Below, in pieces: positions 25,151-61,342 of a stretch of 64,000 nt of DNA. The DNA is from Deltaproteobacteria bacterium Ga0077539. GTDB lineage: Bacteria > Myxococcota_A > Polyangia > Polyangiales > Ga0077539. Position numbers and translations under genes: made by a program. Every line of letters starts with the position of its first letter. The first letter of the stretch is position 1. The notes below the pieces were generated by a model. It was not told the origin of the DNA, searched no databases, and saw only the letters and a program-made list of their open reading frames with translations. The stretch lies in assembly GCA_001465015.1 (NCBI GenBank), contig LNEO01000143.1, positions 62,864 through 126,863 of the forward strand, written 5' to 3'.

Positions 25151-25262
25151 GGCGCTGGGATCTCTACCAGAGTCCGCGCTGCGCTGTCGAAAGACCATCG
25201 AACCTCCGCGCCATCGTTGCCCGTCGCGATGGTGCGGCAGATCGAGTAGCGTCCGTCGAGCG

Positions 25263-39945: not shown

Positions 39946-41742
39946 TCAGAGCGGCGCCGCTGCGATCGATCCCTGGAGCACACGCCGCGCCGAAGGAAAC
40001 TCGCTCAGGTGAGCGCCGATCGCCGAGGACGCCTCGTTGAGCTCCTCGAAGATCGACGCGTTTTGCGCGCCAAACTCGCCGACGCGATCGCGGAGCGCGC
40101 CGATCTCGTGCTCGACCTCAGCGTTGAGCGCGCCGAGCCTTCCCTTGAGCTGGCTGACTTGAAAGCGAAGATCCTCGGCCCCTGCCGTGCGCGACTCTCG
40201 AAGCGAGTGGCACTCGGTGAGCTCGAGCTGCGCCTGACGCCACGCCGTCGCGCGGCGCGCCGCGGTCTCGACGGACTGGGCGGCCTCGACGGACGTCAAC
40301 GCGCCGTCGCCGACCATGCGCCGCGCGTCGTCCCAAGCCATCTTGAATTCTTGTGCGCTCTGTTCAGCGCGGTGCACCGCGCGATCGAGCCGGCGATTGA
40401 CCTCTTCGAGCTGGCGCTTGAGGGCGCTCTCGTCCCGAGACAGCTCGTCGAGCGCCCGGCCGATACGATCGCGCGCCCCGCTCGCGTCCGTCTCTCGCTC
40501 GGCGAGCTGCCGACCGAGCCGTTCGAGCTCGGACTCGATTCGTACGGCGCGATCGACGAGCGACTCGAATCGACCAAACTGGTTGGTGAGCCACTCGGGC
40601 GCGTCCTTTCGCGGGTACGCCAGCGCGATGGCTTCGCGAAACACCGTTCGACGCTCGACCCAATGCCGCGTACCAGCGGCCACTGCCGTCGGGTGCTCGG
40701 CTGCCTTCGGGCTCGAGTGTTGCTCGCCCGATCGCTCGTGCTCGATGCGAGCGAGGGCCTCGACGAACGCCTCCGCAGGGAGCGTGAGCGAGACCTGCGG
40801 TGTCGGCGAAGAGTTCGGCTCGGCGAAGAGCGCGAGCAGCGCCTGAAGCTCCTCGAGCAGGTGGTAGGCGTCTCGGTGGCGCTGCGCTGGATCCTTCGAC
40901 AGCAGCTTGGCGACCACGGCGTCGATTTCTGGTGGAATGCTCGGCACGTACTGCGACGGCGCGGGCGGCGTCGCCCGCAGGTGCTTCACGATCAGCTCTG
41001 CTGTCGAGCCCTCGAACGGCAGGCGCGTCGTGAGCATCTCGAACATCACCACGCCCAGCGCGTACAGGTCCGCTGCGGGACCGACGTTCGGCGCGCCACG
41101 CGCTTGTTCGGGTGAGAGGTACTCGGGCGTTCCGAAGACCGAGCCCGCGACGGTGAGACGCATCTCGTCGTTGACGCGAGCGAGCCCGAAATCGAGCAGC
41201 TTTGCGTGGGTCTTTCCGTCGCGCTGCGTGAGAAAGATGTTCTCTGGCTTCAGGTCGCGGTGGATCACCTCGAGCTCGTGCGCTCGAGCGAGGGCCCGGC
41301 AGACCTGCATGAGCAGCTCGAGCACCTCGCGCGGCGGCATCGGGCCGCGGGCGATCTTGTGATTGAGCGGCTCGCCTTCGAGCAGCTCCATCACGAGATA
41401 GACGAGCTTGCCCTCGTGTCCGTAGTCCGTGATGTCGACGATGTGCTCGTGCCGGATTCGGTTCGTCGCCCGGGCTTCCCGCAAGAATCGCTGGCGCTGC
41501 GTCTCATCGGACGCCAGGTCCGGCGCCAGAAACTTGATCGCGACCTTGCGTCCGAGCACGTCGTTCGACGCCCGATACACCGACGCCATTCCCCCGGCCC
41601 CGATCTTCGATTCGACGCGATATCGCCCGCCGATCGTTCGACCGATCAGCGGATCAGGCATGTCGACGAGCGGCGCTCCATCGACAGGACACGTCGTCGC
41701 GTGGCCCATCAATCGAAGACCGCACTGCGAGCAAACTTTCAC
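39946..41742 (-). CDS. Ser/Thr protein kinase with an N-terminal zinc-ribbon and a C-terminal coiled-coil region
   Basis: CSQCG...CPVDG; GAGGMASVYRA...VAIK; HRDLKPENIFL; DFGLA; GTPEYLSPE. The long C-terminus is heptad-like. I propose the start at GTG 41742. Confidence 0.85.
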   Translation of the reverse strand: MKVCSQCGLRLMGHATTCPVDGAPLVDMPDPLIGRTIGGRYRVESKIGAGGMASVYRASNDVLGRKVAIKFLAPDLASDETQRQRFLREARATNRIRHEHIVDITDYGHEGKLVYLVMELLEGEPLNHKIARGPMPPREVLELLMQVCRALARAHELEVIHRDLKPENIFLTQRDGKTHAKLLDFGLARVNDEMRLTVAGSVFGTPEYLSPEQARGAPNVGPAADLYALGVVMFEMLTTRLPFEGSTAELIVKHLRATPPAPSQYVPSIPPEIDAVVAKLLSKDPAQRHRDAYHLLEELQALLALFAEPNSSPTPQVSLTLPAEAFVEALARIEHERSGEQHSSPKAAEHPTAVAAGTRHWVERRTVFREAIALAYPRKDAPEWLTNQFGRFESLVDRAVRIESELERLGRQLAERETDASGARDRIGRALDELSRDESALKRQLEEVNRRLDRAVHRAEQSAQEFKMAWDDARRMVGDGALTSVEAAQSVETAARRATAWRQAQLELTECHSLRESRTAGAEDLRFQVSQLKGRLGALNAEVEHEIGALRDRVGEFGAQNASIFEELNEASSAIGAHLSEFPSARRVLQGSIAAAPL

Positions 41743-41831
41743 GGACCACCTCGGGTGCGCATCGCTTGAACGCGAGGGATCGTACGCCAACCGCCGCTCT
41801 CGGCGCAGCAATCCGCGGGATGCGTCATTGC

Positions 41832-41873: not shown

Positions 41874-42824
41874 GTGGCGATCGTCGAGAACCTGCTCGAG
41901 CTGGTTGGAAGCACGAGCCTGCTCAAGTTGCGCACCGTGAGCGAGCGCGGCTGCGCTGAGCTTTGGGTCAAGCTCGAGCAGCAAAACCCTGGCGGAAGCG
42001 TAAAAGACCGGATCGCTCTGGCGATGCTCGATCGCGCCGAACGCGAGGGACGCCTCGCGAAAGGCGGCACGGTCATCGAGCCGACCAGCGGAAATACAGG
42101 CATCGGACTCGCCCTCGCATGTGCGGTCAAGGGCTACAAGCTGGTGCTCACGATGCCCGAGAGCATGAGCCTCGAGCGCCGCGCCCTCTTGAGCGCCTAC
42201 GGGGCCGAGCTGGTGCTGACGCCAGAGCAGCTGCAAATGGACGGGGCGATCGCCCGTGCAAACGAGCTCGCCGCCGAACGAGAAGGCGCTTTCGTGCCGT
42301 CGCAGTTTCGAAACACGGCCAACCCCGACTCTCACGAACAGCACACCGGACCCGAGATCGTCCGCGCTCTCGGCGGCGCCCCGGACGCCTTCGTCGCTGG
42401 CGTCGGAACGGGCGGAACGATCAGCGGCGTCGGTCGATTCTTTCGAGCCAGCGGATTCGCCACGCGCATGGTCGCGGTCGAGCCCGAGTCCTGCCCGACG
42501 CTGTCGCGCGGTGAGCGCGGACCGACCAAGATCCAGGGAATCGGCGCTGGTTTCGTCCCCGACAACCTCGATCGCTCGGTCGTGCACGAGGTGCGAACCG
42601 TGTCCGACGACCGCGCGTGGGAGACCAAGGTCCGCCTCGCTCGATCCGAAGGGCTGCTCGTCGGGATCTCCGCGGGAGCAAACGTCGCCGTCGCGTTGGA
42701 CGTCGCGCGCGACCTCGGTGAAGGAAAGCGCGTCGTCACCGTGCTCTGCGATACGGGCGAGCGCTACTTCTCGCTCGCGGCCCACTTCGATGCCGCCCTC
42801 GCGGATCGAGCTCCTTCGCGATGA
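41874..42824 (+). CDS. cysK: Cysteine synthase (O-acetylserine sulfhydrylase, CysK-like PLP enzyme)
   Basis: LLELVGSTSLLKL...KLEQQNPGGSVKDRIA...EPTSGNTGIGLA...GVGTGGTISG. The start is either GTG 41874 or ATG 41820. Confidence 0.85.
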   Translation: MAIVENLLELVGSTSLLKLRTVSERGCAELWVKLEQQNPGGSVKDRIALAMLDRAEREGRLAKGGTVIEPTSGNTGIGLALACAVKGYKLVLTMPESMSLERRALLSAYGAELVLTPEQLQMDGAIARANELAAEREGAFVPSQFRNTANPDSHEQHTGPEIVRALGGAPDAFVAGVGTGGTISGVGRFFRASGFATRMVAVEPESCPTLSRGERGPTKIQGIGAGFVPDNLDRSVVHEVRTVSDDRAWETKVRLARSEGLLVGISAGANVAVALDVARDLGEGKRVVTVLCDTGERYFSLAAHFDAALADRAPSR

Positions 42825-43537
42825 GCGCCAACGTCCTGCTCGTGGGCGTCGGGGGTATCGGTCATCCGTGCGCCCTCGCCCTCGCGACGCGGGAGGACAT
42901 CCGACTCACGCTGCTCGATGACGATCGCGTCGAGCGCACGAATCTCCACCGATTGCTCGCGTTCGACGAGCAGCACGTCGGTCGAACCAAGGCCGAAGCC
43001 CTCGCCGATCACGTCGAGCGATCGCTCGGCGCGCGCCGGCCCGAGGTGATCGTCGATCGCGCCTCGCCGGACACCGTGGCCGATTTGGTCGATCGCGCCG
43101 ACGTAGTCGTCGAAGGCAGCGACAATTTCGCGACGAAGTTCCTCGTGGCCGACGCCTGCGCCCTGGCGAACAAGCGGTCGGTGCACGGCTCCGCCGTTGG
43201 CTGGACCGGCACCGTTCTGTCCGTCGTTCCGTCGAAGAGCGCGTGCTACCGGTGCGTGTTCGAGGACGTTCCGGACGGCGAAGCTGTGGACTGCGCAACC
43301 GCAGGGGTATTCGCCGCCGTCACGTCGATGATCGGCGCTGTCATGGCCAGCCACGTCCGCTGGATGCTCCGACCCGACGCCGAACAGGAGGCGAAGCTGT
43401 CGCACTTCGACGCGACAACTGGCATGTTTCGGCACCGAACCATGAAGAGAAGACCGGACTGCGCGCTCTGTCGCGAGGCTCGCGTCATCACGGCGATCGA
43501 CGCGAGCCGGTATTCAGCGCCGCTCTGCTCGCACTAA
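42821..43537 (+). CDS. ThiF/MoeB-family E1-like adenylyltransferase; no rhodanese domain and no N-terminal RYxRQ segment
   Basis: VLLVGVGGIGHP (nucleotide loop), DDDRVERTNLHR, SDNFATKF, and two CxxC pairs (CYRC, CALC). The ATG overlaps the cysK stop (ATGA). Confidence 0.8.
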   Translation: MSANVLLVGVGGIGHPCALALATREDIRLTLLDDDRVERTNLHRLLAFDEQHVGRTKAEALADHVERSLGARRPEVIVDRASPDTVADLVDRADVVVEGSDNFATKFLVADACALANKRSVHGSAVGWTGTVLSVVPSKSACYRCVFEDVPDGEAVDCATAGVFAAVTSMIGAVMASHVRWMLRPDAEQEAKLSHFDATTGMFRHRTMKRRPDCALCREARVITAIDASRYSAPLCSH

Positions 43538-43555
43538 CCGGAGACCATTTCTTCC

Positions 43556-43831
43556 ATGACCATCTCGATCCGCATCCCTGCAAACCTCCGCACGCTGACC
43601 CAGGCGAAAGAAGAAGTCACCGTCGACGGCGCGACCGTTCGCGCAGCGCTCGCTGACCTCGACGCGAGGTATCCGGGCTTCAACGACCGCCTGCTCGACG
43701 CCAAGGGACTGAAGCGCTTCATGAACGTCTACCTCGGCGACGAGGACATCCGCTTCCTCGACGGGCTCGACACGCCGGTCAAGGACGGAGACTCGCTCAC
43801 GATCGTCCCCGCGATCGCTGGCGGCCGTTGA
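43556..43831 (+). CDS. ThiS/MoaD/CysO-type ubiquitin-fold sulfur-carrier protein ending ...AIAGGR
   Basis: 91 aa with a beta-grasp-like pattern (VTVDGATVRAALADL...VYLGDEDIRFLDGLDTPVKDGDSLTIVPAIAGG). One Arg follows the di-Gly. Confidence 0.75.
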   Translation: MTISIRIPANLRTLTQAKEEVTVDGATVRAALADLDARYPGFNDRLLDAKGLKRFMNVYLGDEDIRFLDGLDTPVKDGDSLTIVPAIAGGR

Positions 43832-43852
43832 AGCGAGGCGGCGTTCTCTCGC

Positions 43853-44224
43853 ATGGACTACGAGCGATACGGTCGGCAGATCGCGCTCGCTGAGCTCGGC
43901 GTCGACGGGCAGGCGAAGCTCGCCTCGCGTGCCGTTCGCTTCGTCGGAGAGCCCGCCGTCGTCGAGCTCGCCCAACGCCTCTGGACCCACGCGGGCGGCG
44001 TGTTGCCAAACGCGAATGCAGCCCCGAACGACCCCGACTCGCGCGTCGTCGAGATCGCGGTTGAGCGAGTGTCCGCTGGCGATGCGCCGGCCGCCATGGC
44101 GTCGGCCTCGTGGGCCGCCCTCGCAGCGATGCGCGCGCTGCTCGGCTGGCCTGCGCACACGCCCTCGAAGGACCTCGCCGCGCTCTTTTCGGGAGATCGA
44201 CAAGAGGAGCACACCTCGCCATGA
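43853..44224 (+). CDS. Small ORF carrying the E1 N-terminal motif (YERYGRQIALAELGVDGQAKL) but no nucleotide-binding loop
   Basis: ATG at 43853. Its stop overlaps the cysM ATG (ATGA). The first 25 aa match the RYxRQ...G..GQ.KL start of ThiF/MoeB; the rest is unassignable. Confidence 0.4.
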   Translation: MDYERYGRQIALAELGVDGQAKLASRAVRFVGEPAVVELAQRLWTHAGGVLPNANAAPNDPDSRVVEIAVERVSAGDAPAAMASASWAALAAMRALLGWPAHTPSKDLAALFSGDRQEEHTSP

Positions 44225-45162
44225 CCGCTTTTGTTCGACCTGCGCGCCTCGACTCCATCGTCGACGCGATCGGCAACACACCCCTGCTCCGCCTGCGAAG
44301 CCTCGAGCCAGAAGGCGTGGAGATCTACGGCAAGCTCGAGTTCATGAACCCCGGCGGATCCGTGAAGGACCGCGCGGCGCGGCAGATCTTTCTGGACGCG
44401 ATCGCCCGAGGCGACCTGACCAAGGACAAGGTCCTCATCGACTCGACCTCGGGCAACACCGGCGTCGCGTACTCGCTCATGGGCGCGGCGCTCGGCTATC
44501 GCGTCGCGCTCGTCATGCCGAAGAACGTCTCGCAGGCGCGTAAGGACATCACGCGCGGCTTCGGGACCGAGCTCGTCTACTCCGATCCGCTCGAAGGATC
44601 AGACGGAGCCATTCGGCTGGTTCGCGAGATCGTCAGCAAAAATCCAGAGAAATACTACTACCCAGACCAGTACTCCAACGCCTCGAACTGGCGCGGTCAC
44701 TACCTCGGCACCGCGCCGGAGATCCTCGCGGACGTCGGCGATCGACTCACGCACTTCGTCACAGGTCTGGGAACCTCGGGGACGATGATGGGGGTCACTC
44801 GAAGGCTGAAAGAGCACTCGCGTCCGATCACGTGCTTCGCCATGGAGCCAGCGGAGGCCGCGCACGGGCTCGAGGGTCTCAAGCACATGGACAGCTCGAT
44901 CGTTCCGCCGATCTATGATCGCTCGATCCACGATGGAACGGTGACGGTCGACACCGACGCCGGTTGGGACATGTCCGATCGACTCGTCGCCGAGCTCGGA
45001 CTGCACGTCGGTCACTCCGCGGGAGCCAACGTGTTCGCCGCCTGGCGGCTCGCAAAGGAGCTGCACGCGCGCGGCGAACGGGGCTGCGTCGTGACCATCC
45101 TGTGCGATCGCGGAGATCGCTATTTCGCGCCCATGAAATGGGAGAAGCAGTACCGCTGGTAG
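44221..45162 (+). CDS. cysM: CysM-like cysteine synthase (sulfur-carrier-dependent type, judged by gene context)
   Basis: IGNTPLLRL...KLEFMNPGGSVKDRAA...DSTSGNTGVAYS...GLGTSGTMMG...SAGANV. Confidence 0.85.
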   Translation: MTAFVRPARLDSIVDAIGNTPLLRLRSLEPEGVEIYGKLEFMNPGGSVKDRAARQIFLDAIARGDLTKDKVLIDSTSGNTGVAYSLMGAALGYRVALVMPKNVSQARKDITRGFGTELVYSDPLEGSDGAIRLVREIVSKNPEKYYYPDQYSNASNWRGHYLGTAPEILADVGDRLTHFVTGLGTSGTMMGVTRRLKEHSRPITCFAMEPAEAAHGLEGLKHMDSSIVPPIYDRSIHDGTVTVDTDAGWDMSDRLVAELGLHVGHSAGANVFAAWRLAKELHARGERGCVVTILCDRGDRYFAPMKWEKQYRW

Positions 45163-45186
45163 CCTCGCAAACAAGGAGCTCAGTCG

Positions 45187-45678
45187 ATGAACGAACACCC
45201 ATGGCTTGCTGACGCGCTCGAGATCGACCGAGCTGTCCTCGACGACGTCGACGCCCATTCGGTCGCCGAATACCCCAACGAATCGTGCGGCTTTCTCGTG
45301 GGTCCCGCGTCGACGCCGGCCGTGATCGACCAGTCGATTCGCGCCGTCAACCTCGCAGACAAGTATCACAAGGCCGACCCCGAGACCTTTCCTCGCACCG
45401 CGCGCGAGTACTACACGATCGACGCGCGCGTGATTCAGCGCACGTTCGAAGCCGGCGTTCGAGACGCGCGGCCTGTGAAGCTCATCTACCACTCGCACTG
45501 CGACTGCGGCGCGTACTTCTCGAAGACCGATCAAGACGCGGCCGCGCCCGACGGACAGCTCGCGTACCCGGTCGCGTTTCTCGTCACCAGCGTCCTCGAA
45601 GGAAAGGTCGCCGACCGAAAGGTCTTCACCCTGCGCGACGGACGTTGGGACGAGCTGCCGTTTACCGTTCGCGGCTGA
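45187..45678 (+). CDS. JAMM/MPN+ metalloprotease (Mec+-like)
   Basis: EYPNESCGFLVG (E-x-x-G) and IYHSHCDCGAYFSKTD (HxH-x7-S-x2-D) form the complete JAMM motif. Confidence 0.8.
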   Translation: MNEHPWLADALEIDRAVLDDVDAHSVAEYPNESCGFLVGPASTPAVIDQSIRAVNLADKYHKADPETFPRTAREYYTIDARVIQRTFEAGVRDARPVKLIYHSHCDCGAYFSKTDQDAAAPDGQLAYPVAFLVTSVLEGKVADRKVFTLRDGRWDELPFTVRG

Positions 45679-45713: not shown

Positions 45714-46448
45714 TCAGTCCATTCCCAAGAACGCGCGCGTCCGCGGGTCTTTCGGCGACCCGAGCACCTCGTGCGGCGCGCCTCGCTCGACGATCGATCC
45801 GCCGTGCAGGACGCACACTTCGTCGCTGATCGCGCGGACGAAGGACATCTCGTGGCTGACGATCACCAGCGCGAGCCCCTCGCTCACGATCGCCTTCAGC
45901 AGCTCGGTGACGTCTTGAACGCGCTCTGGATCGAGCGCGCTCGTCGGCTCGTCCATGAGCAACACTTCGGGCTTCATCGCGAGCGCCCTCGCGATCGCGA
46001 CGCGCTGCTGCTGCCCGCCCGAGAGCTCGTGCGGATACTTCGCGCCGTGCTCCTCCATGCCCACCTTCGCGAGAAGCTGCGCCGCGTGCTCGGTGGCGTG
46101 CTTCACTGACTCGCCGCGGACGTGGACGGGCGCCTCGATGATGTTTCCGACCGCGGTGCGATGGGCGAAGAGGTTCCACTGCTGAAACACGAACCCGACC
46201 CGTCCGCGGAGCCTCGCGAGCATCGCGCGATTGTGCCGCTCTCCTCCCGCGCGAATCGTCACGCCAGAAATCGTAATCGAGCCGCTGTCGAAGGACTCGA
46301 GGCCGTTGAGGCAGCGCAAGAGCGTCGTCTTGCCTCCGCCGGATGGACCGACGAGGGACACCACGGATTTCGCGGCGAACGTCGCGGTGATTCCGTTGAG
46401 CACCGTTCGGTCGCCGAAGGCCTTCGTCACTGTGTCGAGCTCGATCAT
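45714..46448 (-). CDS. Polar amino-acid ABC transporter ATP-binding protein
   Basis: Walker A GPSGGGKTT, Q-loop, signature LSGGQQQRVAIARAL, Walker B LLMDEPTSALD. The ATG overlaps the permease stop (ATGA). Confidence 0.9.
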   Translation of the reverse strand: MIELDTVTKAFGDRTVLNGITATFAAKSVVSLVGPSGGGKTTLLRCLNGLESFDSGSITISGVTIRAGGERHNRAMLARLRGRVGFVFQQWNLFAHRTAVGNIIEAPVHVRGESVKHATEHAAQLLAKVGMEEHGAKYPHELSGGQQQRVAIARALAMKPEVLLMDEPTSALDPERVQDVTELLKAIVSEGLALVIVSHEMSFVRAISDEVCVLHGGSIVERGAPHEVLGSPKDPRTRAFLGMD

Positions 46449-47923
46449 GATCTCGCCAGCCGCTTCTCGAGGTTTCGTGACAGGCGCGAGAGCGGATAGC
46501 TCATCGCGAAGTACATGGCCGCGCACGCGAGCCCCGGCAAGAGCCACGATCGCACGTCCACGGCGGTGATCGTCATCTGCTTGGTGAGCTCGACCACGGT
46601 GATCACCGACACGAGCGAGCTGTCCTTGAGCAGCGCGATGAAGTCGTTGGTCACCCCGGGCAGCGCCATGCGAAACGCCTGCGGAACGATCACTCGCCGC
46701 AGCGCCAATCCCCTCGTCATCCCCAGCGCGAGGGCGGCTTCCATTTGCCCCTTCGGAACCGCCTGCAGCCCAGCGCGATAGACCTCTGCTTCGTACGCCG
46801 CGTAGTTGAGCCCGAGGCCCACGATCGCCGCCGTCATCGGCGAGAGCTGCACGTAGCGAGACAGACCAAAGTAGAAGAGATAGAGCTGCAGGAGCACGGG
46901 CGTCCCGCGAAAGACCTCGACGTAGCTCGTGCAAAGCACGCCGATCGGTCGCGGGCCGTACTCGCGGGACAGCGCCAGGAGCATTCCCAGGACGATCGCG
47001 AGGATCATCGCGCCCGCGCTCACGCGCACCGTCACCCACGCGCCGCGCGCGAAGAGCGCGAGGTGCGGGGTCCCGAAGGTGGCGCGCTCGGTGGTTCGAA
47101 GCAGCTGCGCCTGGTTTTCGTCAGTCCATCGGACGATCGTGTCGAGCCTGGGGTCGTCGATCTGCCATCGAGCCATGATGCGACGCAGCTCTCCAGTGCG
47201 CGAGATGCGCTCGAGTGCCTGATCGATCGCGCGCCCGAGGTCCTCGTCTCCGGGCCGCACCGCCGCAGCGTAGTAGCCGTCGCCGAGATCTCCGACGACG
47301 CGCAGCGAGTCTTTCACCACGCCGTACCGCGTCGCGATGATGTCATCGAGCAGCACGGCGTCGGTGCGCCCGCGCTCGAGGTCGACGTAGGGTTCTTCTT
47401 GTCCTTCGTAGAGCACGGCCTCGATGCCGTTGCGCCGAAGGAGGTCGTGGGACTGGGAGTTTCCGAGCGTTCCGACGCGCAGGCCGCGCAGCGCGTTGAC
47501 GTCGGCTCGCACTCTTCTGTCTCCAGCGCGCGCCATCAGCCGCATTCGGTACAGGTAGTACGGTCGCGTGAATCGAACGCGCCCCGTTCGGGCCGGCGTC
47601 ACCTCGAGCCCGTTGAGGGCGACGTCGAACGTCCCGCGCTCGAGCGACGGAACGAGGTTCGCCCAGTCGTTTTGCACGAAGGTCGCGCGGACGTTGAGCT
47701 CCCTGGCGATGGCCGAAGCGAGGTCGACTTCGAAGCCAACGAGCGTGTCGGCGTTGTGGGGATCGCGAAACACGTACGGCTCTCCGCCCTGCGTGTCGCC
47801 TCCCCACCTGAGCTCTCCCCTCGCCCGCACCGCCGCGAGGCCGGTCGGCGCGCGCTGGCACGACAACAGTCCGAACGCGAGGCACATCCAGATCAACCAC
47901 CACCGCACGTTCGTCGCTCTCAC
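46445..47923 (-). CDS. Fused family-3 substrate-binding protein and permease of an amino-acid ABC transporter
   Basis: SBP part: LRWGGDTQGGEPYVF...GFEVDLASAIAREL...WANLVPSLERGTFDVALNG. Permease part includes the EAA-like region EAALALGMTRGLALRRVIVPQA. The start is uncertain (47887-47923). Confidence 0.8.
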   Translation of the reverse strand: MRATNVRWWLIWMCLAFGLLSCQRAPTGLAAVRARGELRWGGDTQGGEPYVFRDPHNADTLVGFEVDLASAIARELNVRATFVQNDWANLVPSLERGTFDVALNGLEVTPARTGRVRFTRPYYLYRMRLMARAGDRRVRADVNALRGLRVGTLGNSQSHDLLRRNGIEAVLYEGQEEPYVDLERGRTDAVLLDDIIATRYGVVKDSLRVVGDLGDGYYAAAVRPGDEDLGRAIDQALERISRTGELRRIMARWQIDDPRLDTIVRWTDENQAQLLRTTERATFGTPHLALFARGAWVTVRVSAGAMILAIVLGMLLALSREYGPRPIGVLCTSYVEVFRGTPVLLQLYLFYFGLSRYVQLSPMTAAIVGLGLNYAAYEAEVYRAGLQAVPKGQMEAALALGMTRGLALRRVIVPQAFRMALPGVTNDFIALLKDSSLVSVITVVELTKQMTITAVDVRSWLLPGLACAAMYFAMSYPLSRLSRNLEKRLARS

Positions 47924-47999
47924 GGGCGCGAGTGTCGCGCGAATCTCGCTGCGGTCACAGCGCGACAGCACGTCGGCGGCCGAGGGGCAAAACGCCTCG

Positions 48000-49414: not shown

Positions 49415-52177
49415 ATGAGCTCGATCGTCCCTGGCGAGCGCGTGGGGCCGTACGAGATCGTCGCGGAGGTTCGCGGCGGCGGAATGGCCTCGCTGTTTCT
49501 CGGACGCCGCCTCGGCCCCGAGGGCTTCTCGCGGATCGTGGCGATCAAGGTCATTCATTCGCATCTGTCGTCGGATCGCGCGTTCGTCGAGATGTTTCTC
49601 GACGAGGCGCGGCTGTCGTCGCGCATCGTGCACCCCAACGTCGTGCGCGTCGAAGAGCTCGGCGAGCACGACGGGACCTACTTTCTCGCGATGGAGTTCG
49701 TCCAGGGCGCGACCCTGGCCGCGCTGATGTCCGCTCTTCATCGCGCGAACGCCGTGCTTCCCGTCGAGATCGCCTGCGCCATTGCGATGCGAACCGCGGA
49801 CGGCCTTCACGCGGCGCACGAAGTGACCGATGACGACGGCGTCTCGCTCGAGGTGATCCACCGCGACGTATCCCCGCAGAACATCCTGCTCAGCGACAAA
49901 GGGCACGTGAAGCTGATCGACTTCGGCGTCGCGCGGGCCCGCGGCCGCCGGCAAGCGTCCGAAGCAGGCGCGCTCAAAGGCAAGCTCGGCTACATGGCTC
50001 CCGAGCAAGCGTGGGGGCGGGAGATCGACCGTCGCGCCGACGTCTACGCGCTCGGCGTCGTGCTGTGGGAGATGCTCACGCGCAGGCGCCTGCTCACGGG
50101 CGACAACGAGATCGCGGTCCTCGAAGCTGCCAGGGCGCCTCGCGTCACACCCCCGCACGACCTCGATCCGTCCATCACGACCGCGCTGAGCAACGTCGTC
50201 ATGACCGCGCTCGCGATCGATCCCGGCGAGCGCTTTCAGACCGCAAACGCCTTTCGCCGAGCGATCGGCAACGCCTGTCCGGACGCCATCAAGGTCGAGC
50301 CCGACGCGATCGCAAAGCTCCTTTCGTCGGTGCTCGCGACCGAGCTCGCGCGCGAGCGAGAGCTGGTCCAGTCCGAGCCGCGCATGTCCCACGTGCCGCG
50401 GACCTCATCGGCCGCCCTCGCGCCGGACGTCGAGACGGTCGCGTCGACGCCGTCGGCCGTGAGCGAGAGAACGAGCAGCGGCCCCGCGGAGTCTGCGACG
50501 AGCCTCTCGTCTGCTACCGCGGTCAACAGCGCTTCATCGTCGAGGGCGAAGTCTGGGACGTCGCTGCTCGTCTCGGCAGCGGCGCTCATGGCGCTCGGCG
50601 CCCTTGGATCGATCGCCGTCAAGAAGCTCCGCGCGCCGCTCGTGACCACGGTCGTGCGGCCTGTCGTCCGCTCGCTCTGCGACGAGAAGATCGCGATCGA
50701 CGCGCCCGAGGGACGTCCCGCGAGCGTCGACCTCGACACACGAAATCGAGCGGGCGGGAGATTCGATCTCGGGCCGCTGCGCATCGCGCCGTCTCCAGAG
50801 GCCATCGTCGAGCTGAGAGTCCTCGGGGTCGGGCCGCGATCGATCGATCTCTCGACGGTCAACACCGGCACGGACGTGCGCTTCGACACGATTCTGGCCG
50901 TGTTTCGAGGCCCGTGCGACGCCGGGCTCACGTCGCGCCCGCCGGACGTCGTTGGCGACGATCAGCCAGCGGAGCGCGAGTTTCGCGCGCGAACGACGCT
51001 CCGCGCGAACGGCGGGGATGTCCTCACGGTTGTCGTCGCTGGGTTCGGAGGTGTGTTCGGAGGTCGCGTCGATCGAGGGCTCGTCCAGCTCGACGTGAGC
51101 AACAACCTCAGCCGCGCGCCCACGATTCAGTCGGTTCGCCTGGTCGCCGGCGAGCGCCGACTCGTGGCGATCGTGCGTGGCGGCGACGAGGATGGCGATC
51201 TCTCGTCGATGAGGGTGCGTTTGTTCGGCGAGGACGGCGCTGCGCTCCAGCGACTCGGCGTGGAGTCGAGGGTCGCGCTCGCCTTCGATGGTCCCTTGGA
51301 CGATCCGAGCTACAGCGGCAGCGCGTCGAGCGACGTCGGAGAGGAAGTCCCGCTCGAAGCGGCGAGGTCCGCAGAGGTGGTGCTCGTCGATCGACCCGGA
51401 AACGAGAGCGCGTCGCTCCGAGTCCCCGTCGAGCGCGTCGCCATCGTCGGACCCAACGAGCGATGCGACGATCGACGCCTCTGCGCGCCGAACCTCGCGT
51501 GCGACGTCGGTCGATGTCGAGCGACGACCGATCAGGTCGCGGCGTGTCGCGACGCCTCGCCGGTCGAGTTCGTTCGAGGCGACGACGGCGTTCTTCGAGC
51601 GTCGTTCAGCGGCAGGGTCATGCCGGGTCCAGGGTTGTTCGACGGAGCGTGCTTTCGCGCTGCGACGCAGGCTCGAGAGCAGATCGTCCGCCTCGTGATT
51701 CCGCAGGGACGGTGGCGGCTCGTCGCCAGCACCGACGAGGGGGCGAGCGGCGCTGTCACTCGCCCAGACCCGGACACCATCCTCTACTTTCGACGATCGT
51801 GCCTCGACTCGTCGCGCGCCTCGGCGCCAGTCGAGTGGTGCAACGACGACGTCGCGTTTCGTCGCATCCAGCGCTCGACCGTCGAGATCCCAGAGATCAC
51901 CGGCGGCGAGCTGTTCGGCTTCGTCGAGATCTGGGGCAGCAGCCTCGCGGACGGGCACGGCTCGCGCTACACGCTGTCGCTCGAGCTGCGGCCGGTCACC
52001 GCCGACGCGCCCCGCGCGCGAGACGCTCGATGCCCCGCCGAAATGCCAGCCGACGATGCGCTTTGCGCGTTCGAACGACTCGCGTGCACCTACCCTGCCT
52101 CGGGCGTCGCTCGCCGCTGCGCGTGCATCCACACGCTCGCGAACCCTGATTTGTTCACCTGGCACTGCGAGCGGTGA
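49415..52177 (+). CDS. Ser/Thr protein kinase with one TM segment and a large Cys-containing extracytoplasmic domain
   Basis: [10 protein letters not shown]...VAIKV; [11 protein letters not shown]; DFGVA; GYMAPEQ. TM helix [20 protein letters not shown] ~500-aa C-terminal region follows. Confidence 0.85.
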
Positions 52178-54934: not shown

Positions 54935-55845
54935 CCTTCGTGCGAACCCGCGCTTCGACCCTCGCGCTCATCGCTCTGGCGGGCTGCAGAACGCTGCAGA
55001 TGGACAGCGATCTTCGGTCGGAGTTGCTTCGAGCGCAGAGCGACCGTTCGCTGTGCCGTCGCCGCGAGAGCGAGCTCCTCGCGATGCTCGAACCCACGGT
55101 GACGGTGCGCGTCGCGCGCCCCGATGAGCTCGATCGTTCGTTGGCTCGAAGCTCCGCGGCGGCGCTCCATCGACGCGCGGTGCTCGTGCACGTCGAGACG
55201 AGCACCGCGGTCGTCGAGGACGACGACGCTCGCGTCGAGACCGGCTTCGAAGTGCATGGTCGTCCGTCGCGTCTGGTGCTTCCGGCAGACTTCGCGCTGG
55301 CCGATTTTACCGCAGTGGATCGGGCGCGGCCGACCGACGACAGCGAGCCGATCGTCAACGACATCAACGTCACGCCGCTGCCGGGAGCGCTTCAGTCCTT
55401 CGCGGACGGGGTCCGCGTGGGCTACGCGACGTTTATCGTTCCGTTCGTGCTCATGACTTCGGTCGCCGGTCGCGGGCTGCCAGTCGTCGAGCAGGGTCAG
55501 CAGTCCGGCTCGAGCGCAAACGCGACGCACTCGCGCAGCGAGTGGGCCTTCCTCGGCTCGGTGCTCGAACGCGGCGGCTGTCAGCTCATGGCCGGCGGCG
55601 GGTGCCGGCGATGGTTCGTCGTTCCGCGTCCAGACGACGAAGCGACGGCGCCAGTCGCGCTGACGTTCTCCGTCCGCATCGCCGAGGGCAGCGCGCCGGT
55701 GCTGAGCGTCGAGCTGCCGAGCGACCCTTCAGCGAGCACGATCGAACAGCGAATTCACCGGCGATTTCCGCACAACACGCCGCTCGTTCTCTCGCGCGCC
55801 GAGGGCGTTCGTCACGCGAGCATCTGCGAGCGTCGCGCGAGGTAG
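54931..55845 (+). CDS. Hypothetical lipoprotein, translationally coupled to the zinc-ribbon mini-proteins
   Basis: GTG start at 54931, lipobox LIALAGC. I recognised no family. The 3' end overlaps convergent carB by 34 bp. Confidence 0.5.
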   Translation: MTFVRTRASTLALIALAGCRTLQMDSDLRSELLRAQSDRSLCRRRESELLAMLEPTVTVRVARPDELDRSLARSSAAALHRRAVLVHVETSTAVVEDDDARVETGFEVHGRPSRLVLPADFALADFTAVDRARPTDDSEPIVNDINVTPLPGALQSFADGVRVGYATFIVPFVLMTSVAGRGLPVVEQGQQSGSSANATHSRSEWAFLGSVLERGGCQLMAGGGCRRWFVVPRPDDEATAPVALTFSVRIAEGSAPVLSVELPSDPSASTIEQRIHRRFPHNTPLVLSRAEGVRHASICERRAR

Positions 55846-58800
55846 CTCTGCCAGTCGTGCATCTCGAGGTCGTCGAGCGAGAGCTTCTCGATCGCTTCGA
55901 CCACGGCTCGCGCGAGCTGCATGTTCGTGATGAGAGGAATGTTGCGGTCCACGGCGCGACGACGAATCAAGTACCCGTCGGGTCGTCCGTCACCGTCGTA
56001 CGAGCGAGGGATGTTGATCACCAGGTCGATCTTGTCCTGGTTCATCAGGTCGACGGCCGCGGGCGACTTGTTGTCGCTGTGTTTGTAGGCGATTTCGCAC
56101 TCGATCCCGTTCTCGCGAAGGACGTCGTACGTGCCCGGCGTGGCGTAGAGCAAGAGGCCCATCGAGCGCAGGATCTTGGCGTCCTCGAGGAAGCGCAGCT
56201 TCTCTGCCGCCGGACCGAGCGACAACAAAACGCCCTTCTTGGGAAACTTGAATCCCGTCGCGACCAGCGCCTTGAGCAGCGCCTCGTTGAGGTCGTTGCC
56301 GAAGCAGCCGACCTCGCCGGTCGACGCCATCTCGACGCCGAGCGTGGGGTCCGCGCCCGCGAGCCGCGAGAACGAGAACTGAGCGGCCTTCACCGCGACG
56401 TAGTCGAGGTCGAGCGCGCGGTTCTGCACGGGCCCACGAACGCCGAGCATCCTCCGCGTCGCCTCGCGAATGAAGTTGTTGCCGGTCACCTTCGACACGA
56501 AAGGAAAGGACCTCGACGCGCGAAGGTTGCACTCGATCACCTTCACCTCGTTGTGGCGCGCGAGAAACTGCATGTTGAAGGGGCCCGTGATCTTCAGCGC
56601 AGCGGCGACGTCACGGGCGATCTTCTTGATGCGACGAATCGTCTCGATATACAGCTTCTGCGGGGGCAGAACCAAGGTCGCGTCACCCGAGTGAACGCCG
56701 GCGTTCTCGATGTGCTCCGAGATCGCCCAAAGGACGATTTCGCCCTCGTCGGCGACCGCGTCGATCTCGACCTCCTTCGAGTTCAGCCACCACCGGGTGC
56801 TCGGGGCTCACGTCCGTCGCGCGAGTCAGGTAGTTGCGCAGGTGCTCGCGCTCGTGCGCCACGGTCATCGCCGCGCCCGAGAGCACATAGGATGGTCGAA
56901 CGAGCACCGGGTAGCCGCCCAACGACTCGGCGATCGCCTCGGCGTCCTCGAGCTTTCCTGTGCTGGTCCACCTGGGTTGATCGATGCCGAGCTTGTCGAG
57001 AAGGCCGCTGAATTTCTCGCGGTCCTCCGCGCCGTCGATGCTCTCGGGGCTGGTGCCGAGGATCTTCACCCCGGCGCGGTGCAACCGAATCGCGATGTTG
57101 TTGGCGACCTGACCGCCCATCGAGACGATCACGCCGTACGGGCGCTCGCGCTCCCACAGCTCGAGCACGTTCTCGAAGGTGATCTCGTCGAACACGAGCG
57201 AGTCCGAGACGTCGTAGTCCGTGCTCACCGTCTCGGGATTGTAGTTGAGCACGATCGTCTCGAAGCCGAGTTCGCGCGCGGCGAGGATCGCGCTGACGCA
57301 ACACCAATCGAACTCGACCGAGCTGCCGATACGATACGCGCCCGAGCCGAGGACGAGCACCTTCTTGCGCCAGGACGGCTGAACGTCGTCTGCTTGCGCG
57401 TGGTACGTGAGGTACAGGTAGTTGGTCTCCGCGGGATACTCCGCGGCCAACGTGTCGATCTGCGCGACGTGGGGGCGGATCCCGTTGCGGCGGCGCAGGT
57501 CGCGCACGATGTCCTCGGTCGTGCCTGTGCGCTTCGCGATGCCCTTGTCCGAGAACCCCTGCTTCTTGGCGCGCCCGAGAGTCTCCGCGCTGAGCTCTTT
57601 GCCGGCGTGGTCTTCGAGCTCGCGACCGAGCCGCACGGTGTCGGCGATTTCGCTCAAGAAAAACTCGTCGATCCGCGACAGGGCGTGGACCTCGTCGATC
57701 GTCATCCCCTCGTGCAGCGCCCGCGCGACGGCGAACATGCGCCGTTGGGACGGCTCCTTGAGCTCCTTGCGGATGTCGGTGAACTTGAATTTATGTGGGT
57801 CGATGCCGTCGACGCCGATGTCGATCATCCGAAGCGCCTTTTGCAGCGCTTCAGCGAAGGTCTTGCCGATCGACATGACCTCGCCGACCGACTTCATCTC
57901 CGAGCCGATCTTGTGCTCGACGCCCACGAATTTCTCTAGGTCCCAGCGAGGAACCTTGCAGACCACGTAGTCCAGCGCTGGCTCGAAGAACGCGCTCGTC
58001 CGCCGCGTGATGGCGTTGGGCAGGTCGGGTAGCATATACCCGAGCGCGAGCTTCGCCGCGACGTACGCGAGCGGATAACCTGTCGCCTTCGACGCGAGCG
58101 CCGAGGAGCGCGACAGCCGCGCGTTGACCTCGATGACGCGGTAGTCCAGCGAGTTGGGGTCGAGCGCGTACTGAATGTTGCACTCGCCGACGATGCCCAG
58201 GTGGCGGATCGTCTTGATCGCGATCGTGCGAAGGAGCTGGTACTCCTCGTTGTTGAGCGTCTGCGAAGGGGCCACGACGATCGACTCGCCCGTGTGAATC
58301 CCGAGCGGATCGACGTTCTCCATGTTGCAGACGGTGATGCAGTTGTCGCGGGCGTCGCGGACGACCTCGTACTCGATCTCCTTCCAGCCGCGCAGCGACT
58401 CTTCGACGAGCACCTGCGGCAGGCCCGAGGCGAACAGCTTGGGCAGGGCCGACTCAACGTCGTCGTTGGTCTCGCAGATGCGCGAGCCCTTGCCGCCCAG
58501 CGCGTACGCCGCGCGAAGGATCACCGGGAGGCCGATGCGACCCACCGCGGCGCGCACCTCGTCTTCGCTGTGGCACGCCTCGGCGCGGGCGGACTTGACG
58601 TTGATCTCGTCGAGCCGCTGGACGAAGCGCCGGCGATCCTCGGTGTCGCGGACGGCCTCGATCGGCGTTCCGAGCACGCGGACGCCGTATTTCTCGAAGA
58701 CCCCGGCGGCGTCGAGCGCGACACCACAATTCAACGCCGTCTGTCCGCCGAAGGACACGGTAATGGCGTCGATGTCCTCGCGGACGATCACCTTCTCGAC

Positions 58801-59028
58801 GAAGTACGGGTCGACGGGGTGGAAGTACACCTTGTCCGCGAGCTGGTCGCTCGTCTGGATCGTGGCGATGTTTGGGTTGATCAGGACCGTGTAGAGGCCC
58901 TCTTCTTTGAGAGCTTTGATCGCCTGCGAGCCCGAGTAGTCGAACTCGCCCGCCTCGCCGATCTTGAGCGCGCCAGACCCGAGGATCAGCACGCGTCGCG
59001 GCTTTTTCGGAAGATATTGACCGAACAT
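55812..59028 (-). pseudogene. carB: Carbamoyl-phosphate synthase large subunit, split into two frames (781-aa and 287-aa ORFs) by a frame break near 56781-56793. This could be a real frameshift or an assembly indel.
   Basis: The N-terminal ORF reads ...SPEHPVV and then turns into nonsense ([15 protein letters not shown]...). The other frame is open from 56806 and reads [46 protein letters not shown]..., which continues CarB. The combined length of ~1068 aa equals a normal CarB. Confidence 0.85.
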
Positions 59029-59043: not shown

Positions 59044-60150
59044 TCAGACCCGCGTCGAGCCGACGAGGCGCAAGAAGTCATCGAACAAGAACGCCGCGTC
59101 CTCGGGACCCGGCGCAGCCTCGGGGTGAAACTGCACGCTCGCCCAGGGCCTGGTGCGGCAGCGAATGCCCTCGTTGGACCCGTCGTTGACGTTGACGAAC
59201 CACGGCTCCCACTCGGCGGGAAGCGACTCGTCGTCGACGACGTAGCCGTGGTTCTGCGAGGTCACGTAGCAGCGTCGCGTGAGCAGATCCTGGACGGGCT
59301 GGTTCTGCGAGCGATGGCCGTACTTGAGCTTCACGGTGTTGCCCCCGGCTGCGAGGCCGAGGAGCTGGTTGCCCATGCACACGCCGAAGATCGGCTTTCC
59401 CGAGGGAAACACCGCGGTCTTCAGCTGCTCGACCGTGCTCAGCATGTCCTTGGGGTCGCCCGGTCCGTTCGAGAGCAGAACGCCGTCGCACTCCTTCAGA
59501 TACGGCCGCAGGTCCTTGTGAAACGGAACCCGGATCACGCTCGCGCCCCTCGCCACGATCGACCGAACGATCGAGTCCTTCGCGCCCGTATCCACCAGCA
59601 AGATCTTGAGCGGACCGCCCTCGTAGCGAATCACGTCCGGCACCGTCGTCATCGCGCACACGCGCGCCATCTCGACGTGCTCGGTCTTCGCCCGGGCGTC
59701 GACCGGGCTCGTCTTCTGATCGACCAGAAAGCCCTCCACCGTCCCGTGCTCGCGCAACTTTCGCGTCAGCGCCCGGGTGTCTACGCACTCGATCGCCGGG
59801 ACACCCTCGCTCGCGAGCCACTGTCCGAGCGTCCGCACGTTGTCGTAGTGCGACGGGTTGGGGCTGTGCCGCAACACCACGAGCCCCTGCACTTGAACGC
59901 GTCCGCTCTCGTACTTGTCGCGCAGCTCCGCGAGGGGTTCGATCTTTCGCGGCGCCGGGACCCCATAGTTTCCCTGGAGCGGGTAGGTCAGAACCAGAAT
60001 CTGCCCTTTGTAGCTCGGGTCAGTCAGCGTCTCGACGTAGCCCGACATTCCGGTGTTGAACACCACTTCGCCCGAGACCTCGCGGGCTGCTCCAAATGAG
60101 CGTCCCTCGTACACGGTTCCGTCAGCGAGCAGCAGCTTCATCGCCTGCAT
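59044..60150 (-). CDS. carA: Carbamoyl-phosphate synthase small (glutaminase) subunit
   Basis: [39 protein letters not shown]; catalytic [22 protein letters not shown]. Confidence 0.92.
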   Translation of the reverse strand: [368 protein letters not shown]

Positions 60151-60283
60151 CGACGTCCTCGCGCGATCGGCGGCGGTGCGAGAGAGATTGGGAGGTCCGC
60201 CGAAAGGCGGCGCGGTCGTACACCATCGCGACGCGCCGCGCTACGAATTGGCGACGACCATCCCTATACTCGCGCCCCACACC

Positions 60284-61342
60284 ATGCACGACCGGTTTTT
60301 ACGCGCCTGTCGACGGGAGCCCGTCGACGTCACCCCCGTTTGGTTCATGCGTCAGGCAGGCCGCTATATGCCCGAGTATCGAGCGCTTCGAAGCAAGTAC
60401 TCGATGCTCGAACTCTGCCGAACGCCCGAGCTCGCCGCGGGCGTCACGCTCCAGCCCGTTCGCGCGCTGGCTGTCGACGCGGCGATCTTGTTCGCAGACA
60501 TCCTTCTGCCGCTCGAGCCGATGGGCGCGCCGTTCGACTTCGCCAAGGGCGAAGGTCCGGTGATCTTCGAGCCCGTCCGCCGTGTCGAAGACGTCGAGCG
60601 CCTCCGCGTGTTCGAGATCGAAGAAGGTCTCGGATATGTCCTGCAGACGATTCGGTTGCTTCGAACCGAGCTAGAGGGGCGCTGTCCTCTCATCGGCTTC
60701 GCCGGCGCGCCGTTCACGCTGGCCAGCTACCTGATCGAGGGCGGCAAGAGCTCGCACTTCGAGAAGACCAAGTCGTTCATGTACTCCGAGCCCGCCGCGT
60801 GGAACGCGCTGCTCGACAAGCTCGCCGAGGTCACGCGCCGCTATCTCCGCGCGCAAATCGAAGCGGGCGCCGAGTGCGTGCAGCTCTTCGACTCGTGGGT
60901 CGGCCAGCTCTCGCTCGATGACTACCAGACGTTCGTCGCGCCTCACGTCAAGAGCGTGCTCGAGGACGTTCAGCGCACGGGCGTTCCGGTGATCCACTTC
61001 GGCACCGGCACGGCGACGCTGCTCGAAGCGATGCGAGACGCCGGCGGGACGGTCATCGGCGTCGATTGGCGCCAGCCGCTCTCGACCGCGTGGAGCAAGA
61101 TCGGCCACGACCGCGCGGTTCAGGGCAACCTCGACCCATGCGCGCTCTTCGCCCCCTGGCCCATCGTCGAGGCGCGCGTCAAAGCGATCCTGGACGACGT
61201 CGCGTCGAGGCCCGGCCACATATTCAACTTGGGCCACGGAATCCTGCCGACAACGCCGGTCGACACCGTCAAGCGCGTCGCGGATTTCGTGCACGCCTAC
61301 GCCGGTCAACGCACGGACGGCTCCGCCGAAGCGACGACGTGA
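60284..61342 (+). CDS. hemE: Uroporphyrinogen decarboxylase
   Basis: RFLRACRREPVDVTPVWFMRQAGRYMPEYRALR is the canonical HemE N-terminus. ...IFNLGHGI lies near the C-terminus. Confidence 0.92.
   Translation: MHDRFLRACRREPVDVTPVWFMRQAGRYMPEYRALRSKYSMLELCRTPELAAGVTLQPVRALAVDAAILFADILLPLEPMGAPFDFAKGEGPVIFEPVRRVEDVERLRVFEIEEGLGYVLQTIRLLRTELEGRCPLIGFAGAPFTLASYLIEGGKSSHFEKTKSFMYSEPAAWNALLDKLAEVTRRYLRAQIEAGAECVQLFDSWVGQLSLDDYQTFVAPHVKSVLEDVQRTGVPVIHFGTGTATLLEAMRDAGGTVIGVDWRQPLSTAWSKIGHDRAVQGNLDPCALFAPWPIVEARVKAILDDVASRPGHIFNLGHGILPTTPVDTVKRVADFVHAYAGQRTDGSAEATT

Follow-up and report, generated by a model that had tools for sequence, protein, structure and literature searches.

In Mycobacterium tuberculosis, the cysteine synthase CysM uses the thiocarboxylate of the ubiquitin-like carrier protein CysO together with O-phosphoserine (PMC9547175, PMC12910592). 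Operons of the wider type, which encode a ThiS/MoaD-type carrier, an E1 enzyme fused to a rhodanese domain, a JAB peptidase and a cysteine synthase, were already catalogued in 2006 by Iyer, Burroughs and Aravind as types 4c and 4d (PMC1779556), so the pathway itself is not new. Here we describe a six-gene cluster of Deltaproteobacteria bacterium Ga0077539 that lies in a 64,000-nucleotide stretch of contig LNEO01000143.1 with a G+C content of ~67 %, which we call the window. The cluster very probably serves sulfur-carrier (CysO-type) cysteine synthesis, and its new part is the division of the E1 between two genes, one of them for a miniature, inactive E1-like protein, an arrangement apparently fixed across Polyangia. 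In the literature searched, the coverage of which was limited, neither the Polyangia variant nor a ThiF/MoeB enzyme split in this way was described.

The Mec+-CysO-CysM system of M. tuberculosis, with MoeZ, shares with this cluster a CysO-orthologous carrier, an adjacent synthase of the CysK/CysM fold, an intact JAMM peptidase, an adenylating E1 and a sulfur-assimilation context. Unlike in that system, the E1 is here encoded in the operon and has neither a rhodanese domain nor an N-terminal arginine-finger helix. The cluster also has an extra mini-E1, a canonical CysK as its first gene and a carrier that runs one residue past the diglycine, and it contains no ClpS and no actinobacterial helical protein. 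Its CysM-like enzyme shares only 37 % identity with M. tuberculosis CysM, with Lys in place of R220. The six open reading frames (ORFs) are as follows, with PLP standing for pyridoxal phosphate:

41874-42824, + strand: CysK-like synthase, 316 amino acids (aa) from GTG 41874
42821-43537, + strand: E1-like enzyme, short and of ThiF/MoeB type (E1s), 238 aa
43556-43831, + strand: carrier protein of ThiS/MoaD fold, CysO-type, 91 aa
43853-44224, + strand: ORF4, the mini-E1, 123 aa
44221-45162, + strand: CysM-like PLP synthase, 313 aa
45187-45678, + strand: JAMM/MPN+ metallopeptidase, 163 aa

The initial annotation of this DNA had described six tightly packed, same-strand genes with ATGA overlaps, and we recovered every ORF at these coordinates together with both overlaps. 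The ORF list and the GC content by codon position show coding-type composition for all six + strand ORFs, which occupy 41.8-45.7 kb. The stop and start codons overlap between cysK and the E1 gene (42821-42824) and between ORF4 and cysM (44221-44224), and the remaining intergenic gaps are 18, 21 and 24 nt long. A signal scan found no promoter-like or terminator-like site on the + strand inside the block, and the terminator-like sites at the locus are on the minus strand only and at chance level; a search for regulatory RNA gave zero Rfam matches in the window. The six genes most likely form one operon for cysteine synthesis via a ubiquitin-like sulfur-carrier protein.

The product of the second gene, E1s, matches Pfam ThiF (E = 4.4e-47) with residues 3-214 on profile positions 21-236, and aligns to residues 29-244 of E. 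coli ThiF. It starts directly at strand beta-1 and the G9-x-G-G-x-G14 loop, without the N-terminal RYxRQ helix. The rest of the catalytic equipment is in place: E1s keeps R44 (equivalent to ThiF R70), K57, D101, the zinc ligands C142/C145 and C214/C217, and the crossover-loop C158 (ThiF C184), and these residues and both CxxC pairs are, like the glycine loop, invariant in 66 homologues. An AlphaFold2 (AF2) model of E1s is confident (predicted local distance difference test (pLDDT) 92.9, predicted template modeling score (pTM) 0.91), and in Foldseek it superposes on ThiF and MoeB with a template modeling (TM) score of 0.81 and a root-mean-square deviation of 1.9-2.3 Å. As had been annotated, E1s has no rhodanese domain: it consists of a ThiF domain only, neither Pfam nor NCBIfam gives a rhodanese match, and 238 aa leave no room for such a domain.

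Here and below we draw on an E1-alignment scan of one genome per species, which returned at least 583 loci, and 83 distinct loci scored with hidden Markov models built from the alignments of this analysis. The RYxRQ helix is absent from 120 of the 120 best E1s homologues, all of which start just before GxGGxG, and no RYxRQ lies in frame upstream of E1s at any of the 83 loci (0/83). At the other end of the chain, E1s has a family-specific C-terminal tail, ...IDASRYSAPLCSH, which follows the second CxxC for ~20 residues (219-238) with the pattern I..ID..RY..P.C; in the window these include R230, Y231 and C236. Canonical ThiF and MoeB, unlike E1s, end soon after the second CxxC. The tail is found in 63 of the 83 loci, both in cysteine operons and in stand-alone E1s-ORF4 pairs, and the AF2 model of E1s is confident as far as residue 230. 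The tail's cysteine could be a persulfide relay, or the tail could be a cis substitute for the lost helix.

The ThiF N-terminal segment missing from E1s is exactly the segment carried by ORF4, a correspondence that the initial annotation had not remarked on. ORF4 belongs to no Pfam family, and public records list it as a "hypothetical protein". Residues 2-32 of ORF4 align to ThiF 5-35, which pairs R8 with ThiF Arg11 and MoeB Arg14, and the model TIGR02356 matches it over profile positions 1-39 (E = 5.5e-4). The N-terminal helix carries the arginine-finger motif R5-Y-G-R8-Q9, followed by G16..G19-Q20. Next comes a degenerate start of a Rossmann fold, in which VRFVGEPAVV replaces GxGGxG, then ...AGG. 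The C-terminal helix, ASWAALAAMRALLGWP, resembles the E1 helix that follows the crossover loop, and it is still E1-like in distant members of the family, for example AAAAVETIKAILG. The label "E1-fragment ORF", given earlier to this gene between the carrier and CysM, fits in that only the first ~35 residues of ThiF/MoeB are matched, but what is encoded is a conserved partner protein and not a fragment.

ORF4 is a real, conserved family of ~40 clusters. Four homologues, 62-94 % identical, came from a word-seeded search, and a profile search of 1.84 billion representative proteins gave 44 matches, ~40 of which are 96-135 aa long. The alignment of the 44 sequences has a mean column identity of only 29 %; G19 and G48 are invariant in it, and R5, R8, Q9, L12, G16, Q20, A40, A47 and L97 are at least 90 % conserved. 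Two distant relatives, P0167 (32.8 bits) and P0161 (39.2 bits), score above the Pfam ThiF cut-off of 28.1 bits. AF2 models ORF4 as a small alpha/beta domain (pLDDT 84.8, pTM 0.77), in which the 20 N-terminal residues that form the finger helix have markedly lower pLDDT values, of 58-72, as one would expect where a segment docks on a partner protein. The top fold matches in Foldseek are nearly all E1s, including ThiF, MoeB, Uba4, Tcd1 and the inactive subunits SAE1 and NAE1.

High-GC DNA is rich in long spurious ORFs, and the lack of a Pfam family and the one genome without ORF4 could likewise be taken to mean that ORF4 is a chance ORF or a non-functional remnant of a decayed second E1. We find this barely credible. 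The GC content of ORF4 by codon position (0.76/0.54/0.81) is coding-like and matches that of the neighboring genes, its predicted fold is confident, and it overlaps or abuts its neighbors as translationally coupled genes do. Its place in the locus is kept down to ~25-30 % identity with a near-invariant motif, and its representative clusters in the 1.84-billion-protein library number ~40. A split of the E1 by frameshift or mis-assembly was considered and rejected, because the N-terminal piece is encoded beyond the carrier gene, on its downstream side, because the arrangement recurs in dozens of independent assemblies that include complete genomes, and because ORF4 has a conserved C-terminal half of its own.

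The arrangement is widespread in one bacterial class. The best 80 of the at least 583 loci are nearly all from Polyangia, among them Sorangium cellulosum So ceGT47 and Minicystis rosea DSM 24000, whose genomes are complete. The order CysK-E1s-carrier-ORF4-CysM-JAMM is found in 53 of the 83 loci, nearly all of Polyangia/Myxococcota, with E1 identity down to ~40 %, which is far beyond chance. ORF4 is present in 68 of the 69 loci that have at least 1.3 kb of sequence downstream of E1s. These include ~9 loci, one of which (L022) rests on a weak ORF4 match that overlaps the E1s gene, with E1s-ORF4 pairs but no carrier, CysM or JAMM gene, so it is the short E1, and not the cysteine genes, that ORF4 constantly accompanies.

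Stand-alone pairs of E1s and ORF4, often overlapping by a few bases, were seen at ~4480-5650 in each of L010, L020, L027, L034, L043, L045, L062, L074 and L078. In several of these loci, the pair is followed by a gene for a secreted-looking protein of 430-460 aa. Such pairs might serve molybdenum cofactor (Moco) or thiamin synthesis.

In ThiF and MoeB, the Arg11/Arg14 finger reaches from one subunit into the active site of its neighbor, and in the yeast Tcd1-Tcd2 heterodimer it is supplied by the defective subunit (PMC13139853). From the complementarity of the two sequences, their conservation and co-occurrence, and the predicted fold, we infer a two-piece E1 made of the E1s core and ORF4. That ORF4 is the subunit that provides the arginine finger of the short E1 in trans seems to us evenly poised between likely and unlikely. 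Somewhat more tentative is the fuller proposal, that the two form an obligate bacterial heterodimeric E1 in which ORF4 would be a minimal, inactive adenylation domain of ~120 residues, reduced to its dimer-facing elements and the trans finger, and fixed across Polyangia both in the cysteine operon and in stand-alone modules. In such a heterodimer, the conserved C-terminal cysteine tail of E1s might act as the persulfide relay that a rhodanese domain would otherwise provide.

This proposal can be set beside two groups of known enzymes. The homodimers ThiF and MoeB of E. coli have the fold, nucleotide loop, Arg/Lys/Asp set, zinc site and crossover-loop cysteine of E1s, and likewise no rhodanese domain, but each of their subunits carries its own finger helix, whereas here the helix belongs to a second protein, of 123 aa, and the conserved C-terminal tail of E1s is additional. 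SAE1-UBA2, NAE1-UBA3, the two halves of UBA1 and Tcd1-Tcd2 would share with E1s and ORF4 the use of two E1-derived polypeptides (or halves), one of which lacks the nucleotide loop and keeps the finger. ORF4 differs from the inactive partners in these enzymes in its size, ~100-135 aa across the family as against >300, and in the loss of most of the Rossmann fold. Unlike the eukaryotic heterodimers, the putative bacterial pair is accompanied by no E2 or thioester chemistry and would make a thiocarboxylate.

The carrier on which this E1 would act is, by its sequence, a clear CysO orthologue. It matches Pfam ThiS (4.7e-16), and its residues 1-90 align end to end with Amycolatopsis CysO (PDB 4n6e_B, E = 1.1e-22) and M. 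tuberculosis CysO (3dwg_C, E = 6.9e-22). The carrier ends in ...VPAIAGG-R, with the diglycine at 89-90 and an extra R91. The earlier statement that it does not end in GG is therefore literally right on account of the added Arg, but overstated, as the diglycine is present and the extension is a single residue. The C-termini of 70 orthologues fall into two sets, 38 that end in GG and 32 that have 1-6 further residues; the extended set includes GGR in 12, plus GGL, GGA, GGC, GGSSFDR and others.

A separate observation concerns a 1.7-kb contig (L088, GCA_964586305.1), in which a single 204-aa ORF at 1056-1670 joins a full CysO-like carrier (...AVAGG) through an 11-residue linker to an ORF4-like mini-E1. 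This in-frame fusion sits directly downstream of a short E1. Lying next to an E1s, the fusion counts in favor of the two-piece E1. If it is no assembly error, release of the carrier must involve a cut behind GG, much as ubiquitin fusions are processed.

The JAMM peptidase is the final gene of the operon in the 53 loci. It matches Pfam Prok-JAB (3.5e-14) and PDB 2kcq (E = 2e-5), and its motif is intact (E32, H102-S-H-x7-S112-x2-D115). We presume that it is a Mec+-like hydrolase of the carrier-cysteine adduct. Since carriers end either in GG or in GG plus 1-6 residues, trimming by JAMM is implied, and presumably it is JAMM that also removes R91 from the carrier in the window; the enzyme would thus probably have two duties, carrier maturation and cysteine release. 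HcyS-Ala/HcyD, of methionine synthesis in Wolinella succinogenes, is likewise a carrier/JAMM pair in which trimming comes first. JAMM trimming of carriers extended past GG has been described for QbsE/QbsD and proposed for CxnE/CxnF (PMC5925218). In these pairs, as here, the carrier is encoded with residues past Gly-Gly and the JAMM gene is in the same cluster. The cluster described here differs from them in that the extension is a single Arg and many orthologues have none, so trimming would be a lineage-variable extra duty and not a defining step.

Two PLP-dependent synthases flank the activation genes. The first gene encodes a bona fide CysK-type O-acetylserine sulfhydrylase, and the annotation of a second, CysK-type synthase at the head of the operon holds: it matches Pfam PALP (6.4e-79), scores 385 bits against a cut-off of 351 for TIGR01139 cysK, and has CysK enzymes as its closest solved structures (E = 1e-102). 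Its PLP lysine is K44, in SVKDR, and the alignment places Gln where CysM enzymes have Arg or Lys. CysK is the leading synthase in the 53 six-gene loci. Its start may lie at GTG 41874, as first annotated, at the in-frame ATG 41820 or at TTG 41766, where the ORF opens; ATG 41820 is the start in the public gene call on a metagenomic relative that is 99 % identical.

The fifth gene is harder to classify. Its product matches Pfam PALP (8e-60) with K49 as the PLP lysine, and CysM models are the closest to it, but its 317 bits against TIGR01138 cysM are under the cut-off of 394, and it is also under the cut-off of TIGR01136 cysKM. Among solved structures it matches E. coli CysM (4e-60) and M. tuberculosis CysM (1.5e-52), and a PDB search with an orthologue profile also ranks the E. 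coli enzyme above that of M. tuberculosis. In alignments, with the M. tuberculosis sequence checked against PDB 3dwg_A, it is 37 % identical to M. tuberculosis CysM, 39 % to E. coli CysM and 38 % to the neighboring CysK. Because it falls below the NCBIfam cut-offs and is about equally distant from the characterized synthases, we assign it by context, as the presumed thiocarboxylate-accepting synthase.

Its active site offers some further hints. K221 aligns with R220 of M. tuberculosis CysM and R210 of E. coli CysM, a position that is Gln in CysK. The invariant residues in five orthologues include H215-G-L-E-G-L-K221-H and a C-terminal tail, PMKWEKxYxW, that differs in sequence from the tail of M. 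tuberculosis CysM. In M. tuberculosis CysM, specificity for O-phosphoserine and the carrier thiocarboxylate goes with R220, whose role was reportedly described by Agren et al. in 2008, and with a C-terminal tail. For the CysM-like enzyme, neither K221 and the tail nor the structure rankings, with a single sequence or with the orthologue profile, separate O-phosphoserine from O-acetylserine specificity. The earlier recognition of CysO/CysM/Mec+ components in the cluster thus stands for the CysO-orthologous carrier and the intact JAMM, next to a fully equipped E1 core, while the CysM component is recognized by context from a sub-cut-off match.

The uncertain class of this synthase leaves room for a thiocarboxylate that feeds something other than cysteine, such as another beta-substituted alanine or a cofactor or natural-product pathway, in which case the cysteine label would reflect family resemblance only. 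Relatives of the same fold with other products (SbnA, O-ureido-serine synthase and cysteate synthase) are among its matches, it is under the cysM and cysKM cut-offs and equidistant from characterized synthases, and Polyangia have a rich secondary metabolism. Co-option of CysO-type carriers is known, and the best PDB match of the carrier, 4n6e, is such a complex. We nevertheless hold this alternative to be quite improbable, as the operon is without biosynthetic tailoring genes, is led by a canonical CysK and is conserved like a housekeeping unit across 53 or more species-level genomes. The Lys/Arg active-site position and the C-terminal tail of the CysM-like enzyme also resemble those of M. tuberculosis CysM. 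The gene context in relatives speaks for sulfur assimilation: a same-strand Rrf2-family (IscR/CymR-like) regulator gene lies upstream in 47 loci, and a gene for a bifunctional ATP-sulfurylase/adenosine 5'-phosphosulfate kinase (Sat/CysC) lies downstream in eight, including those of Sorangium cellulosum and Minicystis rosea.

The same context bears on whether the cluster is a ubiquitin-like tagging or anti-phage system (Bil, CBASS Cap2/Cap3 or 6A-MBL-like) with the PLP enzymes as bystanders. The initial annotation had kept a conjugation or anti-phage role as an alternative, since E1, ubiquitin-like and JAMM genes co-occur in such systems, and the E1 does give weak matches to the PADLOC models for E1-E2 (Cap2) and BilD and to NCBIfam 6A-MBL cap2_3. 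These matches cover the Rossmann core only and reach at most 47 bits, against 161 bits to ThiF; the cluster has no E2 or E1-E2 fusion, and PADLOC gives nothing for the carrier, ORF4, JAMM or the synthases. With a carrier that is a CysO orthologue and relatives in a sulfur-assimilation context, the alternative finds no support and we consider it very remote. The defense-system reading was rejected after the PADLOC scan, which gave generic Rossmann-level matches for the E1 and none for the other five proteins.

The overall explanation that we favor, and regard as fairly probable, is a cysteine operon in which a thiocarboxylate route runs beside conventional CysK and the carrier is activated by a two-piece E1 of E1s and ORF4. 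JAMM would first remove R91 to expose the Gly-Gly carboxylate of the carrier, which the short E1 would adenylate with the help of ORF4. In this step ORF4, as a shrunken and catalytically dead E1 paralogue, would replace the second protomer or at least dock its N-terminal helix, so that R8 is given in trans. Sulfide, or persulfide from a donor outside the window, would then turn the acyl-adenylate into the carrier thiocarboxylate. The CysM-like enzyme would form an aminoacrylate from O-phosphoserine or O-acetylserine and add the thiocarboxylate to it, and after an S-to-N acyl shift JAMM would release cysteine and regenerate the carrier. CysK would in parallel make cysteine from free sulfide.

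Several findings weigh against this explanation. The fold match of ORF4 to E1s in Foldseek is weak (ThiF, E = 0.026, probability 0.92, TM 0.39), the conserved RY..P.C tail of E1s might itself stand in for the missing N-terminal helix, and the sequence comparisons do not establish the CysM-like enzyme as an orthologue of M. tuberculosis CysM. The initial annotation had proposed a check for a rhodanese or cysteine-desulfurase partner as sulfur donor; a Pfam scan of 27 further window ORFs, which left out ~2.6-6.0, 25.8-31.0 and 35.1-37.5 kb, where no ORF passed the coding filter, found neither of these and no serine acetyltransferase. Rhodanese-less E1s, E. coli ThiF and MoeB among them, normally rely on an external source of sulfur. 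One locus, L017, is a cysteine operon without ORF4, and two others, L087 and L085, have a mini or degenerate E1 beside the carrier and CysM with no adjacent short E1, which fits a role directed at the carrier or CysM equally well.

L017 (4423-6487, on a 5.4-Mb contig of a Polyangiaceae metagenome-assembled genome) is the sole operon locus without ORF4, and its E1 is extended at the N-terminus by 28 low-complexity residues that do not include RYxRQ. L087, a 2-kb ENA contig, reads CysK-carrier(GGK)-miniE1(110 aa)-CysM-JAMM, with no E1s between. L085 (2710-5886, GCA_964528465.1), a more distant cluster, encodes a carrier, a CysM-like enzyme, a 219-aa degenerate E1 with GDDPVV and a single CxxC, a radical-SAM-like protein of 409 aa and then a Na/sulfate-type symporter. 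The L085 and L087 clusters may be evolutionary intermediates of the mini-E1.

Loci of this kind raise the alternative that ORF4 is no E1 subunit at all and serves the carrier or the CysM-like synthase as adaptor or regulator, for instance by escorting the thiocarboxylated carrier to CysM or by gating the E1; it would then be an E1 relic kept for binding and not for catalysis. In L087 the mini-E1 lies between carrier and CysM with no E1s, and in L085, where a longer degenerate E1 comes after the carrier and CysM, no active E1 lies within 8.6 kb. The ORF4 stop overlaps the cysM start in the window, and one contig (L088) fuses the carrier to ORF4. The arginine finger has moreover been reported to be dispensable, as catalytically non-essential, in ThiF and MoeB (PMC13139853). 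This alternative is nonetheless unlikely in our judgment: the ~9 loci with stand-alone E1s-ORF4 pairs have no carrier, CysM or JAMM gene, and the strongest constraint on ORF4 falls exactly on the ATP-contacting RxxRQ motif. ORF4 also lacks the E1 region that binds the globular domain of the carrier, having only the N-terminal elements and one helix, and L087 is a 2-kb contig, so its E1s may lie just beyond the end.

A two-piece E1 of E1s and ORF4 would matter for several reasons. A whole bacterial class appears to run a ThiF/MoeB-type enzyme as two genes, a core without the finger helix and an unannotated mini-protein. If E1s and ORF4 associate, ORF4 would be the smallest known "inactive E1 protomer". 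If the proposal is true, the pair would serve as a simple bacterial model of the way in which symmetric ThiF/MoeB dimers become asymmetric E1s, and as a clean natural experiment on what an arginine finger held to be dispensable contributes. Prokaryotes would then have arrived independently at a parallel to the active/inactive asymmetry of the eukaryotic E1 enzymes. A hypothetical-protein family in hundreds of myxobacterial genomes, including the cultivable Sorangium cellulosum and Minicystis rosea, would also gain a function. As for the synthases, a 2022 review states that the mycobacterial CysM is "found only in actinobacteria" (PMC9547175), whereas CysO-linked synthases are evidently standard equipment in Polyangia.

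On either side of the operon, the window has genes that are not part of the six-gene unit:

39946-41811, - strand: large Ser/Thr protein kinase, divergent, upstream of the operon
45714-46466, - strand: ATPase of a polar-amino-acid ATP-binding cassette (ABC) transporter, convergent, downstream of the operon
46445-47971, - strand: fused substrate-binding/permease protein of the ABC transporter, convergent, downstream
49415-52177, + strand: second large Ser/Thr protein kinase, on the other flank of the region

The best NCBIfam matches of the transporter are sub-threshold, to L-cystine TcyN (278 bits, cut-off 406) and to a cystine permease (171 bits, cut-off 300). Its synteny with the operon is restricted to the window's own lineage (the window, L001, L002, L006, L007 and L009), and it is probably outside the operon system and context only. 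In this lineage the Rrf2 gene has been lost, and the divergent Ser/Thr kinase and the cystine-like transporter are found instead; the kinase occupies the upstream place that in most Polyangia (47 loci) belongs to the same-strand Rrf2 gene.

Elsewhere in the window, the large subunit of carbamoyl-phosphate synthase (55812-59028, - strand) is encoded as two ORFs, of 781 aa (56683-59028) and 287 aa (55812-56675). The shorter one carries the end of the second ATP-grasp domain and the MGS domain, and the small subunit is encoded at 59044-60150; the two-ORF carB is either a genuine split or a frameshift. A 630-aa protein at 23921-25813 (- strand) has a deoxyhypusine-synthase-family domain only at residues 277-576, and its N-terminal ~270 residues have no Pfam match. 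Uroporphyrinogen decarboxylase is encoded at 60053-61342. At 8859-10391 (+ strand), uroporphyrinogen-III C-methyltransferase and uroporphyrinogen-III synthase are fused (TP_methylase and HEM4), and the methyltransferase half points to a siroheme branch, which is relevant to sulfite reduction and unlinked to the operon.

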